This document shows positions 3,601 through 8,138 of a stretch of DNA of 64,000 nucleotides, piece by piece; the first letter of the stretch is position 1; every line of letters starts with the position of its first letter. Source of the stretch: Kondoa subrosea. Its lineage: Eukaryota. Location of the stretch: the NCBI GenBank assembly GCA_039545335.1, contig BCIN01000002.1, positions 372,001 through 436,000 of the forward strand. The letters run 5' to 3'. A model generated the notes under the pieces. That model had not been told where the DNA came from and searched no databases. It saw nothing but the letters and a program-made list of their open reading frames with translations. The translations under genes and the position numbers were made by a program.

Positions 3601-5127
3601 TCAACGATTTCTTGCTGCTGCCTTGCTGCTCTTCAACTTCCTCGTAAACTCCTTGAACCTATCACTCGTCTCTCTTGACCCAGAACCAGTAACGCCAGCA
3701 TCATCCGCTGTTCTACTTCTAGGAGCAATAGTATAGTTGGTCGTACTCGCTTGAGGAATACGTGCATGTCTTCTTTCAGTACCAGAATCTTTGATTCCAG
3801 GCTTGATGCTCGCTAATCTAGCTCTTTGAGATCCAGCTGCAGTTGGATGAGACGAATCGTCTGGTCGAGAAGAAGCTTGTGGGATTGGTCGATCTCGCCA
3901 AGTTGCACTTCTTCTCAATAAGGGTCGCATCCAGTTGGTGATTAGTAAATCGGCTGTACGACGGATAGATGGATCGCAGCGTTCACATCGAGAGTAGAAC
4001 AGTACTACTCGGCCGATCTTAGATTCTTTGAGTGAAGCAGTGTCGCAAGTAAGCTGTGCGGAAGAGACATAGATGTGAGCTAGAGCCCAGCGAAATCCAT
4101 CGTCATACACACATTCAATAAGATAGAAAACATTGCTCGGAGAATATTTAGAGCGGGAAGAGATTTGTCGCTGAGTGGTTCGAGCCATTCTTTGATAGCA
4201 CCCAGAATGCCTTGATCGAGAGCAATTAGTTCCAAATGAGATCTGTGAAGCATACTTAGGAGACTGGAGCAGCGAGTCGGAACAAAACCCTACTTCTGTA
4301 AAGTAGCGATAACTTTTGGCAGCATCTTCAGTTTGTGAGTAGCTGGTTTGCCTTCGGTGTTTGCATCGAAATCTCGTTTGGCGGCACCCAGCATATCAGC
4401 ACGCAAGGTGAGAATCTCTTCATCGTCTCCAGCAGCTCCCAGATCCTAGCAACGCAATGTAAGCATACTTTGTCATTCAGCAGTAGAAGCATTACCTCTT
4501 CGTCTCCAGCACGTTTCTTCTTCTTGGCTTTAGGCTTCTTGATGATAGCATCTAAACGCCTATCCAGATCGCGTTTGCGTTCTGTATGGTAACCAACAAA
4601 GCGAGAATCAGGGAAGTGCTGATGTCTCAATGTCCGGCACATACGTTCTTCAGGAGTGAGATTCTCTTCAGGTGAAGGCTCTCTCTCGACTGCTTTGCGC
4701 GCACGCTTCTTCTTCCTGTTAGTTCCATTTTGGCTTTAGCATACATTCCGCAAACACAAAATGTGACCGACTGAGGGGCTTCGCCATCAGAGTCCACCGC
4801 TCTCTTCTTCTTTCTGACTTTCTTCTCTTTAGGCGCTTTACCAGCATCAGCAGCCTTTTCAGCCTTCGAGCGGCCATCCTTTTCTTGATATTCCCCATCT
4901 CCTCGACCTTCCTCGTTAGCGTCTCCTTCAGAAGCTGACTCGTATGGTTCTTCCTGATCATCTTGACCTCCAGCGGCATCGCCAGCATTCGAATCCAAAT
5001 CAGACAAGTCGGAATCTCCTCCAAAGATTTCTCGGTCGCTAATCCATCCTATGAGACATCTGAGTGTACCTGAAGTAGGCCGAGCTCACAGAGCATCTCT
5101 GATGTTAGGTACAGCAGCCTCAGACAT
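3601..5127 (-). CDS. IWS1: Transcription elongation factor Iws1/Spn1
   Basis: Acidic N-terminus, then [28 protein letters not shown] and [13 protein letters not shown]...[10 protein letters not shown], typical of the Iws1 TFIIS-N-like domain. Multi-exon. Confidence 0.9.
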
Positions 5128-5189
5128 CTTTGCAATTCCAAGTGATAGTTCGAGGTTAAGCTCATGAGTTGTGGATTGCTCTCTTGTCC

Positions 5190-6595
5190 ATGACCGCCGC
5201 TGCTCAGAATGCTTACTCTATTCTTGCTTCCATCCTATTAGACTACACAATGTCCGTCATCTCACGTACTTGCTGTTCTCAAGCTTGTTAGTTTCTCATT
5301 TCTTGTCTGTGCTTTGTCATGTAGTGACGAAATCGCTCTCTCTCCTCATCCTTTAGAAGATGCCTCTCATCCTCCTTTCGCTCTCTATGATTCTGTCAAT
5401 CTCGTTATCCCTATCAAGACCCTTTACTCCATCTACCCTCTTGCCAAATCGCTCGTCAAAGAATGGAGAACTCTTTCAGCTCGAGATATAGATGTAGCTT
5501 CTCGAATCGTATTGATTCAAAGTCCAGAGCACTTGACAGCGTTGAATTGTCGAAAACGCTTGCTTGTGCAGACATCTAAAAGTAAAGTGGTCAAAATGGG
5601 TCTCAAACCTGAATACTTTGAGCAAATCAGATCGGGTCAAAAGAGCTGGGAAGGTAGATTGAATCGCAATATCTACTCTACAATCAAGCAAGGGGATCAA
5701 ATACACTTTTACTCCAACAACGATCCCTCTTCGACAATTGTACGAATTGTGGAAGAGGTCCAGAGGTTTTCTACATTTGAGGACATGCTCAACAAGCGAC
5801 ATCATCTCTTTCTACCTCCTGCCACTACCTTAGAAGAAGCTGTAACAACTTACAAGTCTCTACCTGGTTATGCTGAAGCAGTCAAAGCAATAGGGTGTAT
5901 CGCTTTCCGTCTCAGTCAGCCTTATCTCACAGCAGATCAAGAACTACTTTTCCTTAACGCCTTATTATCGATCAAGGGGAACAGCAAAGCACCACCACTT
6001 TGGTCACATAGGCGTTTCCTTCTATCTCTTTTACCTTCTTCTTCCCAACAATCTGATGAAGATCAAGAATTATTGATTGCTCAAAAAGCTTGCGAAGGAT
6101 ATAAAAGAAACTACGCTGCTTATACTCATCGAACAATCCTTTCTCTTCCTACAGACTTGGGGCAAGCATTAAAGTGGTTCGAAAGGAATCCATCAGATTG
6201 GTCAGCTGCTGCTCTAGTATTACATCTCTTACAAACCTATCCAAATGTGAATGCGAAGGAAGAAGTTTGGGAAATAGCCATGGATAATGTTAGAAGATAT
6301 GGGAGGGAAAGCTGTTGGTTGTTCTTGAGAGCTCTGTGTGGCTTGTGGAGGGAGAAATTGGACAAAGCGTTGAACTTGATCGAGGATTGTTTGGTTCAAG
6401 AAGTAAAAGGAGAAGGAAACGTTGCAGACAAGCAAAGAGAAGAGATGCAGGAAAGTCATGAATGGGCCAGAAAGACAAAGGCGTTCTTGCTTTGGCAGGT
6501 AAGTGCAACGAAAGCGGTTTCGGGAAGAACTTGCTGATGAGCCTTTCCAGAATGGGAGGTTGAATTTCGATAGCGCGAAGCAGGTCCTAGGATAA
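5190..6595 (+). CDS. PTAR1-like protein prenyltransferase alpha-subunit repeat protein with an inserted ASCH domain (introns 5252-5324, 6499-6550)
   Basis: PPTA-type motifs PEHLTALNCRKRLL, SKAPPLWSHRRFLL, YKRNYAAYTHR, NPSDWSAA and GRESCWLFLR. ASCH segment ~5584-5916 with MGLKPEYFEQIRSGQKSWEGRLN and IKQGDQIHF. Confidence 0.85.
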
Positions 6596-6854
6596 TGTGC
6601 ACGCACTAGTTACTGTATAAGGCCATGCAGTTCGGCTATCTTCAACATTACGTAATCTACTTTTAGCTTTTAGATGCTCCACCTCGAACTATTGGAAGTT
6701 CTCCTTGGTCTGCCACGACCTAATCGCATCCGGATACTGTTCTAGTTCTCTTACAGCAGACTACCTCAATTCCGCGGCTTGAAGCTGTCTAGTCCTGCAC
6801 CATTGCCATCGATTGTTGATTCCACTTCCTGTGCTCGCTGCCTGCTTCGCAAAT

Positions 6855-7906
6855 ATGCACACAACGATTCATGAAGATCGATCTTTCCTTACTTCTATTG
6901 TCATTGCTGTACTTGGTTGGCTTGGGCACATGCGAGTAGATAAGATCAAACCTCAACCAGCTGGGTCAAAGAAGTTGGATGTACCAAAGTTTCTGGCCAA
7001 GGGCTTCCTAGTCACTGAACGTAATCTCGATGGAATCTACGTATACGAGATTATTTCGCGCGCAGCAACTCGCAAGGCAAAGAAGCGCATTCTACAGTTC
7101 GTGTGTTCACAACTTCTCTGTACTATCAGACTCAACTCCCGCTGTTTTCAGTTTCCCTGGTGGCGGATTCCTGTCTCCGGCTGGTTATCTTCATTGGAAA
7201 ACGCTCAGCCGGATTGTCGAGAAAACACCTGACACTGAATGTCTTCTGGTCTCTTATCCTTTGGGACCTAATTCACCTGCTCCAGAAACTTTCCCTCGTC
7301 TTGTAGAAATAACCAACATAATAGCGAAAGAAACAGCAGAAGCAGAGCAGGAACTCATATTCAGGTATGTGGCATTACCTTTCATTGTCGTCAATCATTC
7401 AGCTAATGCCGAGATTATGAAGTGGTGATAGTGCTGGTGGAAATCTTGCGTTCGGTCTTCCTTTACATCTTCTTCACAATGATCCATCATTCCCTGCACC
7501 TTCGAGAATCGTCACAGTGGTACCGGCTGTTTCGCTAGACAAGTCACTACTCAATAGCGAAGAACGTCAAGATCCAATACTATCTCTCGCTTTGGTCGAT
7601 GCAATTCAGAAGCAATGGTTCGGCGACTGGTCAGTTTCTGATCCCAGAATCTCTCCGACGCAAGCGGATGTAGCTATATTGAAGCAGAAAGGAGTAAAAG
7701 TTCACATGAGCGTTTCGGGATTGGATATTTGCGCGGATGGTGCATTGTTTATGAGGGATAAATTAGAGAAAGCTGGAGTTGAAGGAACTTGCAAACTCTG
7801 GACGAAGCAGATTCACCTCTCAGCTGGTGTCGGTTTGGCTTTCCCTGGATGGGGTTTCAGAGATATGGATGCAATGGCGCGTGCGCATTTGGAAGATTAT
7901 GCATAA
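6855..7906 (+). CDS. Alpha/beta-hydrolase, HSL-like esterase (3 exons)
   Basis: FPGGGF oxyanion motif, SYPLGP, nucleophile motif GDSAGGNLA after an intron (~7423), SGLDI acid motif and QIH histidine. Confidence 0.85.
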
Positions 7907-8138
7907 GAAAGGCTCATAGGTGAAGGTGTAAACTATGAAAGAATGGGATGATTTAACTCAAAGGTACTGCGATACTATCTCTTGCTCGGCTTCATGGCAT
8001 CTTCGCTTGGTTTCGTTTCTCCATTTCTAGCAGCTCCCGTGCATAAGGAGCCATAGCCGCCTGGAAGCTTGTATCAGGCACCTGCTGAGCAGAAGTGACT
8101 ACGCATTCAACGAATCAGATTGGTAGCAATGAAGTGTC

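Follow-up and report, generated by a model that had tools for sequence, protein, structure and literature searches.

PTAR1/Ecm9, the α subunit of geranylgeranyltransferase type III (GGTase-III), by which the SNARE Ykt6 receives its second lipid, and the ASCH domain, known as an N4-acetylcytidine (ac4C) amidohydrolase or tRNA deacetylase, are two systems whose functions have both been worked out recently. A stretch of 64,000 nucleotides from Kondoa subrosea (contig BCIN01000002.1, positions 372,001 to 436,000; hereafter "the window") contains a gene, located at 5190..6595 on the plus strand, that appears to bring the two together. The encoded protein is read here as a member of the PTAR1/Ecm9 clade in which a whole ASCH domain has been inserted in frame at the loop connecting helices α4 and α5 of the solenoid and has since been kept by selection, a reading to which a probability of roughly 0.8 can be attached.

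Ecm9, the yeast counterpart of PTAR1, is reported to bind Bet2 and to geranylgeranylate Ykt6 (PMC12001115), and PTAR1 homologs are described as being marked by an N-terminal helix and a three-stranded sheet that, in the same accounts, are absent from FNTA and RABGGTA (PMC12001115, PMC9141697). In human GGTase-III, as portrayed in PMC9141697, the substrate FBXL2 is contacted by the α2–α3 loop, and Ykt6 by the N-terminal extension and by the α9–α10 and α11–α12 loops of PTAR1. The window protein shares with PTAR1 of humans and Ecm9 of yeast the crescent of antiparallel PPTA helices and the N-terminal β-strands that precede the solenoid, its best structural match being a PTAR1 chain (6o60_A); unlike them, it carries ~105 extra residues, corresponding to the ASCH domain, in what would be the α4–α5 loop, and its identity to PTAR1 chains, measured in the structural alignment, is 22–23%.

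As to the ASCH family, a preprint (bioRxiv 10.64898/2026.02.27.708502) defines a GKER subgroup and reports that 19 of the 19 ASCH proteins assayed removed ac4C from tRNA, that TthASCH, EOLA1 and TRIP4 cannot dispense with the Lys and the Glu of the motif, that Tyr14, nine residues before the Lys, and the Arg contribute to the activity and that nucleic-acid binding varies among the members of the family. With TthASCH, ZmASCH, EOLA1 and TRIP4 the insert has in common the Lys, Glu and Arg of the octapeptide and the Tyr nine residues before the Lys (Tyr14 of TthASCH); its fold is similar to those of ZmASCH (template-modelling (TM) score 0.71) and of the GKTR-type YqfB (TM 0.71–0.77), the sequence identity being 14–19%. 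TRIP4 is a zinc-finger protein that carries its ASCH domain C-terminally, whereas that of the window lies inside a repeat protein. The resemblance to PH0355, PF0455 and PF0470 of Pyrococcus (2z0t, 1s04 and 1xne) extends to size (~110 residues), fold, the G-K-E-G-R, F..ML, LPG and IY motifs and the point at which the domain starts; however, the PH0355-type proteins are free-standing and archaeal, whereas the ASCH domain of the window lacks free ends, being set into a helical-repeat protein of a eukaryote.

A precedent for a prenyltransferase α subunit endowed with non-helical accessory domains is offered by mammalian RabGGTase α, which has an immunoglobulin (Ig)-like domain, inserted within the helical domain, and a leucine-rich repeat (LRR) domain; the PDB titles "RabGGTase(DELTA LRR; DELTA IG)" indicate that both can be removed. 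On the other hand, it belongs to another clade, neither its inserted fold nor its insertion site is that of the window protein, and its Ig and LRR domains have no link with nucleic-acid chemistry.

The ASCH insert and its helical flanks

The frame that holds both components extends from stop to stop between 5242 and 6537 on the plus strand (431 open codons) and spans the N-terminal flank, the ASCH domain and the C-terminal flank. Along it the peptides ...PEHLTALNCRKRLLVQ, KVVKMGLKPEYFEQIRSGQKSW...GCIAFRLS and ELLFLNALLS...SKAPPLWSHRRFLL succeed one another in this order, in agreement with the original prediction, made from the letters of the window, that an ASCH domain lies in frame, and within a single exon, inside a PTAR1-like α subunit; in a longer reading of the junction between the N-terminal flank and the insert, ...SPEHLTALNCRKRLLVQ is followed by KVVKMGLKPEYFEQIRSGQKSWEGRLNRN...GCIAFRLS.

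Judging from both sequence and predicted structure, the segment 5584..5916 is a complete ASCH domain, a small β-barrel of the PH0355 type. The comparison with Pfam that had been proposed for this segment supports the assignment, the score against ASCH (PF04266) being 31.0 bits (E 4.3e-7; gathering cut-off 21.2) for the segment and 27.8 bits when the domain is scored inside the whole frame. A profile made of the window protein and two of its relatives, P0001, which has the insert, and P0002, which does not, matches the 109-residue PH0355 (2z0t) with E 3.7e-8, and a profile of 28 sequences of the ASCH subfamily matches PH0355 (2z0t) with E 3.9e-37, PF0455 with 2e-33 and PF0469 with 3.9e-23. When the segment alone was modelled by AlphaFold2 (AF2) on the subfamily alignment, the predicted local distance difference test score (pLDDT) was 98.0 and the predicted TM score (pTM) 0.87, and the best Foldseek match of the model was PH0355 (2z0t_A; TM 0.88, root-mean-square deviation (rmsd) 1.5 Å, 31% identity, E 3.3e-10); PF0455, PF0470, ZmASCH (a ribonuclease of Zymomonas), E. 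coli YqfB and Thermus TTHA0113 were also retrieved, with E values in the range, PH0355 included, from 3.3e-10 to 2.3e-3.

The octapeptide G-x-K-x-x-E-x-R, singled out from the beginning as the ASCH signature, reads GQKSWEGR in the window protein and, in P0001, GSKTWEGR. Its four defined positions (G18, K20, E23 and R25 of the domain), together with F65 and Y90, are invariant across the 28 aligned sequences, and Y11, nine residues ahead of the Lys, is invariant in two sets of five sequences. Since the Lys, Glu, Arg and Tyr of the GKER type are all present, the insert appears to retain the residues currently thought to be needed for catalysis.

As regards the flanks, the profile of the window protein, P0001 and P0002 matches prenyltransferase α chains of the PDB with E values from 5e-8 to 8e-5, FTase α (5.1e-8), PTAR1 (7.1e-7) and RabGGTase α (7.2e-6) being among them, and such a sequence profile cannot, by itself, separate these three clades. 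The AF2 model of exon 2, calculated from a 61-sequence alignment, contains 13 helices and has a mean pLDDT of 81.2, the flanks being mostly above 90 (78–97 for residues 21–80 on the N-terminal side and 85–98 for residues 201–391 on the C-terminal side). Its top Foldseek match is the PTAR1 chain of the GGTase3-FBXL2-SKP1 complex (6o60_A; E 1.9e-5, TMt 0.69). VIA-align superimposes the model on this same chain with Z 22.0 and an rmsd of 3.0 Å over 250 residues, starting from PTAR1 residue 39, within the N-terminal extension; four other PTAR1 entries follow with Z 18.0–18.6, the values for RabGGTase α are at most 16.6 and those for FTase/GGTase-I α at most 15.9. The top 49 entries are all prenyltransferase α chains (Z 13.3–22.0), the first unrelated helical entry having a Z of 10.9. 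Furthermore, among five JGI-sourced insert-free homologs whose clusters were consulted, JGI calls three [quoted passage not shown] and the others "hypothetical protein". In the model, the flanks constitute a PTAR1-type crescent of antiparallel helical hairpins whose structure is nearer to that of PTAR1 than to those of FNTA and RABGGTA.

Three helices of the exon-2 model (residues 30–45, 52–65 and 70–81) precede the insert, after which the solenoid resumes with the helix at 203–214 and continues onward. From this order, and from the alignment of model residue 9 with PTAR1 residue 39, the helices before the insert would correspond to α2, α3 and α4 of PTAR1, and the ASCH domain would therefore occupy the α4–α5 loop, which is predicted to share one edge of the solenoid with the α2–α3 loop.

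Site, conservation and rarity of the insertion

A word-based search with the exon yielded, among 3280 candidates, two proteins, namely P0001 and a Hypoxylon protein without insert. P0001, a protein of 392 residues found in a Logan assembly, is identical to the window protein at 203 of 385 positions (53%) over the whole exon, has its insert at the same place and passes the cut-offs of both families (PPTA, 30.6 bits as against 29.5; ASCH, 23.0 as against 21.2). The identity amounts to 73% (54/74) in the N-terminal flank, 52% (58/111) in the ASCH domain and 47% (87/186) in the C-terminal flank. The value for the insert thus falls between those of the two flanks, which we take as evidence that the insert is probably under purifying selection and as constrained as its host.

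The original prediction had held that the two helices flanking the insert are joined by a short loop in ordinary PTAR1, and this is borne out by the spacing of the flanking motifs, which is 158 residues in the window protein and 155 in P0001 compared with 16–88 (median 52) in 111 homologs; the count was made on 152 proteins, 39 of which failed the simple motif patterns and were left out. Relative to the normal loop, the insert adds ~105 residues.

The rarity of the arrangement emerges from a profile search of 1,835,955,588 representatives, which returned 2137 proteins at E≤1e-3; the analysis concerns the best 150 of these 2137. Within this set, P0001 is the only protein matched in a single stretch over positions 1–406, three proteins (P0071, P0101 and P0113) match through the ASCH domain only, and none of the remaining 146 matches ASCH; when the ASCH profile was run over all 171 collected proteins, no PPTA-like protein was matched except P0001. 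The fusion is not widespread among these relatives. The four named relatives encountered belong to Hypoxylon, Apiospora, Lignoscripta and Rhizodiscina, all Pezizomycotina; taken with the compact layout and the short introns, they would tentatively point to an ascomycete-like fungus. Scanning metagenomes for relatives of the whole protein gave 118 stretches that matched the pattern, with no relative among them. In P0106, a protein of 674 residues, FAD_binding_4 and BBE domains accompany a PTAR1-like PPTA region, so that it is either another unusual fusion of this family or the product of a merged gene call.

Nor does the architecture seem to have been described before, as had been surmised at the outset: in 8.09 million PMC papers and 0.36 million bioRxiv preprints (subscription journals and domain-architecture databases lying outside the search) "ASCH domain" was never found together with "prenyltransferase", nor "PTAR1" with "ASCH", and a search of the same two collections for ASCH domain insertions in fungi gave unrelated papers only. 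What is new is the rare arrangement, in which a known enzyme subunit is combined with a known domain.

The alignment of related proteins, suggested as a means of dating the event, proved informative. P0049, which is 43% identical to the window protein and has in common with it the clade-specific blocks PYALYDD, IPIKSLYRIYPLA, SPEH.TAMNCR and RNYAAY.HR, has a 12-residue loop in place of the ASCH domain. Since P0049 (43%) lacks the insert and P0001 (53%) has it, the insertion is placed, on sequence comparison, after the split from P0049 and before that between the window protein and P0001. Because P0001 shares both the site and the G-K-E-R motif, and the 146 other proteins, P0049 among them, do not match ASCH, the presence of ASCH in a PTAR1-type protein is best regarded as a real domain insertion, rare, restricted to a lineage and apparently selected.

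Alternative readings and the donor of the insert

Several points weigh against the reading of the window protein as a PTAR1-type subunit with a selected ASCH insert. In the first place, the flanks do not pass the PPTA profile (PF01239) to which the original prediction had entrusted their recognition: the window protein scores 24.7 bits (match at frame residues 247–263), under the cut-off of 29.5; this part of the expectation is supported by the profile matches with PDB prenyltransferase α chains and by the PTAR1-like fold. The scores of the relatives are, in addition to that of P0001, 59.7 (P0049), 47.3 (P0002), 44.0 (P0003) and 64.5 (P0005). In the second place, of the three-stranded sheet that marks PTAR1, two strands (residues 20–22 and 25–27) are seen before the first solenoid helix in a model that comprises exon 2 alone and whose residues 1–13 have a pLDDT below 50. 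Likewise, of the barrel looped out of an α solenoid that structure prediction had been expected to reveal, the barrel is obtained with high confidence when the domain is folded alone, but its position is not, the pLDDT of the ASCH part of the whole-exon model being 52–75 and its orientation with respect to the solenoid not being fixed. The carriers total two, both from unannotated sources. Finally, the ASCH domain is bracketed exactly by a potential donor, GTAAAG at 5582, and by either of two potential acceptors, CAG at 5930–5932 or at 5933–5935, which would delimit 351 or 354 nt, a multiple of three in both cases, and the domain could be a mere binding module or a tolerated passenger.

The last of these ideas, i.e., that the insert is translated and yet non-enzymatic, acting as an RNA- or protein-binding module for the recruitment or localisation of substrates, or else persisting as a neutral passenger, has something to recommend it and is nonetheless judged rather unlikely. 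Judging from the helix order of the model and its alignment with PTAR1, the α4–α5 loop would share an edge with the α2–α3 loop, the one that contacts FBXL2 (PMC9141697), and ASCH proteins are reported to vary in nucleic-acid binding (bioRxiv 10.64898/2026.02.27.708502); yet the catalytic Lys, Glu, Arg and Tyr, the latter nine residues before the Lys, are kept in both carriers, and a mere spacer would not retain an identity of 52%.

A second alternative regards the ASCH segment as a cassette that some or most transcripts would leave out by way of the in-frame intron delimited by the splice sites mentioned above, the gene producing both an ordinary PTAR1-like and an ASCH-containing isoform; in a variant of this scheme, the architecture could be the relic of a gene that lay in an old intron and was later exonised. 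The skipped product would read RKRLLVQTSK-(Q)DQELLF, with approximately the loop length of the insert-free P0049 and P0002. However, GT/AG pairs are common, GTAAAG is a weaker donor than the GTCCGT and GTAAGT of the two clear introns, and the candidate intron would be 351 nt long against the 73 and 52 nt of the clear introns; moreover, the open frame, the 52% identity and the intact motif found in two species imply that the segment must at least sometimes be translated, and skipping is held to be improbable. A related possibility, namely an independent ASCH gene nested in an intron, was rejected: in both species the domain is not followed by a stop, its frame is shared with the flanks and the Met that could start it is not conserved.

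Concerning the donor, the original prediction had contemplated a small prokaryotic gene, possibly acquired horizontally, and had indicated an ASCH phylogeny as the way to find out. When the ASCH segment alone was searched by words, one candidate and no scored match resulted, whereas a profile of five ASCH sequences identified 16 proteins among 518 candidates. In addition, 185,579 prokaryotic genomes yielded 22 pattern matches, nine of these loci encoding ASCH relatives with 28–33% identity to the insert. A maximum-likelihood tree was calculated from 28 ASCH sequences over 115 columns, including eight of the nine prokaryotic loci; the ninth (L009) was left out because of in-frame stops. In this tree the two inserts pair (support 99/93) and have as sisters the standalone P0156 and P0152/P0113 (95/77); P0157 comes next (94/85), followed by the pair formed by P0071 and a locus of a Chlamydiae metagenome-assembled genome (MAG), the deeper branches being without resolution.

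The 90% cluster of P0157, which is 39% identical to the insert, includes P0171, a metagenomic protein of 257 residues that begins with a piece of Fra10Ac1 (PF09725; 36.1 bits, residues 5–39), continues with an Arg/Ser-rich linker and ends with an ASCH domain (residues 143–248). P0171 resembles the window protein in that an ASCH domain of the same subclade is joined to another eukaryotic protein; it differs in that this domain is C-terminal and the partner belongs to a spliceosome-associated family, and it may represent either a second ASCH fusion of eukaryotes or two genes merged in the gene call. Since Fra10Ac1, a spliceosome-associated family, is not known outside eukaryotes, at least one of the near ASCH relatives of the insert is eukaryotic. 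Plant proteins and one from a EukProt transcript likewise belong to the subfamily, and the nearest unclassified or eukaryotic ASCH proteins are 39–42% identical to the insert.

A direct horizontal transfer of a small prokaryotic gene into the loop could be invoked on the grounds that the best matches among solved structures (PH0355, PF0455 and PF0470) are archaeal, that the look-alike clusters of the ESM Atlas are mostly bacterial (they confirm the ASCH family, but their taxa are not informative) and that the window has a Met five residues ahead of the EYF motif, near the start of standalone ASCH proteins. This Met, however, is a Val in P0001, and the phylogeny did not yield the prokaryotic origin that had been envisaged: the sisters of the inserts are the standalone proteins mentioned above, followed by P0157 with its eukaryotic-type cluster member, and the prokaryotic loci reach 28–33% identity as against 39–42% for the nearest unclassified or eukaryotic proteins. 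The composition of the insert is likewise host-like, its GC content being 0.426, its GC content at third codon positions (GC3) 0.414 compared with 0.37–0.38 in the flanks and its codon-preference score 0.045, within the 5–95% range of the window (0.006–0.167); a repeat search around the insert revealed no flanking direct repeats or target-site duplications, only short matches at chance level. Direct transfer from a prokaryote is thus deemed highly improbable. In view of the eukaryotic near relatives, the modest identity of the bacterial ones, the host-like codon usage and the absence of flanking repeats from the search, a simpler explanation is that the donor was probably an endogenous eukaryotic standalone ASCH gene.

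That the architecture is an artefact, due either to a chimeric assembly or to a dead gene whose frame stays open by chance, is scarcely credible, given that two re-assembled contigs each span 5100–6700 with 0 differences (although both derive from one sample, possibly the source of the window, and so are not independent of it, and the proteins of the organism are unannotated in the collection searched), that P0001, from a separate source, has the same architecture and that 431 open codons with matches to two domains are not a product of chance.

Some further observations were made on the ASCH sequences gathered in these searches. P0071/P0154 and P0101 have two tandem ASCH domains of the subfamily of the insert; the N-terminus of P0071 is hydrophobic and signal-like, the second ASCH domain of this protein groups with the locus of the Chlamydiae MAG (98/91), and P0101 starts with a Lys/Ser-rich region of 220 residues. 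In L009 (2001–2291), from an uncultured-bacterium MAG, the tblastn match to ASCH contains four stops in its frame, which may be due to a frameshift in the gene, to coordinates that are not precise or to a different genetic code. Two loci from a metagenome scan with the ASCH subclade (L010 and L011) lie in another frame within or beside bacterial genes and were read as chance matches, and the match statistics of a third (L012) equal those of L011.

Gene structure, neighbouring genes and possible function

From the ATG at 5190 to the TAA at 6595 the gene would consist of three exons encoding a protein of ~426 residues, the introns having been placed by eye from splice consensus and homology. Exon 1 (5190..5251, plus strand) comprises the ATG, 20 codons (MTAAAQNAYSILASILLDYT) and 2 bases, and probably encodes the N-terminal helix of a PTAR1-type N-terminal extension. 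A putative intron 1 (5252..5324, plus strand; 73 nt, GTCCGT...TAG, with the donor GTCCGT at 5252) has a phase in which exon 1 continues into the conserved DEIALSPHPLEDA. The latter aligns with P0001 and with the LEIEILG.SHPL block of the family, and the Y..L...L pattern of exon 1 aligns with the consensus of the family N-terminus; it is these two matches that support the join between exons 1 and 2.

Exon 2 (5325..6498, plus strand) is the long middle exon and constitutes one open frame. Its N-terminal flank (5325..5583), with the β-strands of the extension and three helices, ends with PEHLTALNCRKRLL and the linker VQTSKS; the ASCH insert of the GKER type (5584..5916; GQKSWEGR), assigned through Pfam, AF2, Foldseek and the comparison with P0001, has 111 residues; and the C-terminal flank (5917..6498) begins with the linker QPYLTAD and continues with ten helices of the PPTA solenoid (ELLFLNALLS...SKAPPLWSHRRFLL...). 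Within the ASCH coding sequence, 5726–5758 harbours a 14-nt inverted repeat, 93% complementary and with a 5-nt loop, probably occurring by chance. A putative intron 2 (6499..6550, plus strand; 52 nt, GTAAGT...CAG, with a branch-like CTGAT) precedes a putative exon 3 (6551..6595, plus strand), which, as inferred from its translation, consists of 14 codons (NGRLNFDSAKQVLG) followed by TAA; the protein called for P0001 continues straight through the position equivalent to intron 2. An Rfam scan of 4000–8000 gave no match.

On the opposite strand, the window contains a divergent neighbour (3601–5085, minus) having an acidic, Lys-rich N-terminal part and a helical-bundle domain of the Med26/TFIIS N-terminal type (36 bits), which looks Iws1/Spn1-like from its sequence. 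Its open frames stop ~100–140 nt short of the ATG at 5190, so that a very short stretch probably serves both genes as promoter region. Downstream, 6783–7906 (plus strand) encodes an α/β-hydrolase of fold 3 (Abhydrolase_3, 52 bits); its coding sequence is spread across several frames, and the gene therefore probably contains introns.

The interpretation of the function of the PTAR1-type protein with its ASCH insert is offered with much less confidence than that of its architecture. By analogy with yeast Ecm9 and human PTAR1, the helical part would pair with the β subunit of RabGGTase (the Bet2 ortholog) and would geranylgeranylate mono-farnesylated Ykt6. The ASCH domain would hang, by two linkers of ~8 residues each, on that edge of the solenoid to which the α2–α3 loop belongs and, like other GKER-type ASCH domains, might act autonomously as an N4-acetylcytidine (or N4-acylcytidine) amidohydrolase or as an RNA-binding module. 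The whole, a GGTase-III α solenoid with a looped-out ASCH domain, is most likely bifunctional, its two activities being largely independent of each other.

A closer relationship between the two activities, already imagined in the original prediction, is conjecture: on this view the ASCH domain, placed at the edge that faces the substrates, might recruit RNA or ribonucleoprotein, sense free ac4C or N4-acylcytidine, or provide the prenyltransferase with a new class of substrates, and such a coupling is considered very unlikely. Were it to exist, the double prenylation of the Ykt6 type, and with it Golgi and autophagy trafficking, would respond to the turnover of RNA modifications, and the window protein would represent the first physical link of protein prenylation with epitranscriptomic chemistry.

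As a domain insertion the case is a clean one, with a known ancestral state and with relatives that bracket the event, and it indicates that the α4–α5 loop of a PTAR1-type subunit tolerates a folded cargo of 110 residues. The view of either family would stay as it is unless a coupling of the two activities came to light; for the PTAR1/Ecm9 and ASCH families, what the gene of K. subrosea provides is a testable hint of either a functional link or simple bifunctionality.

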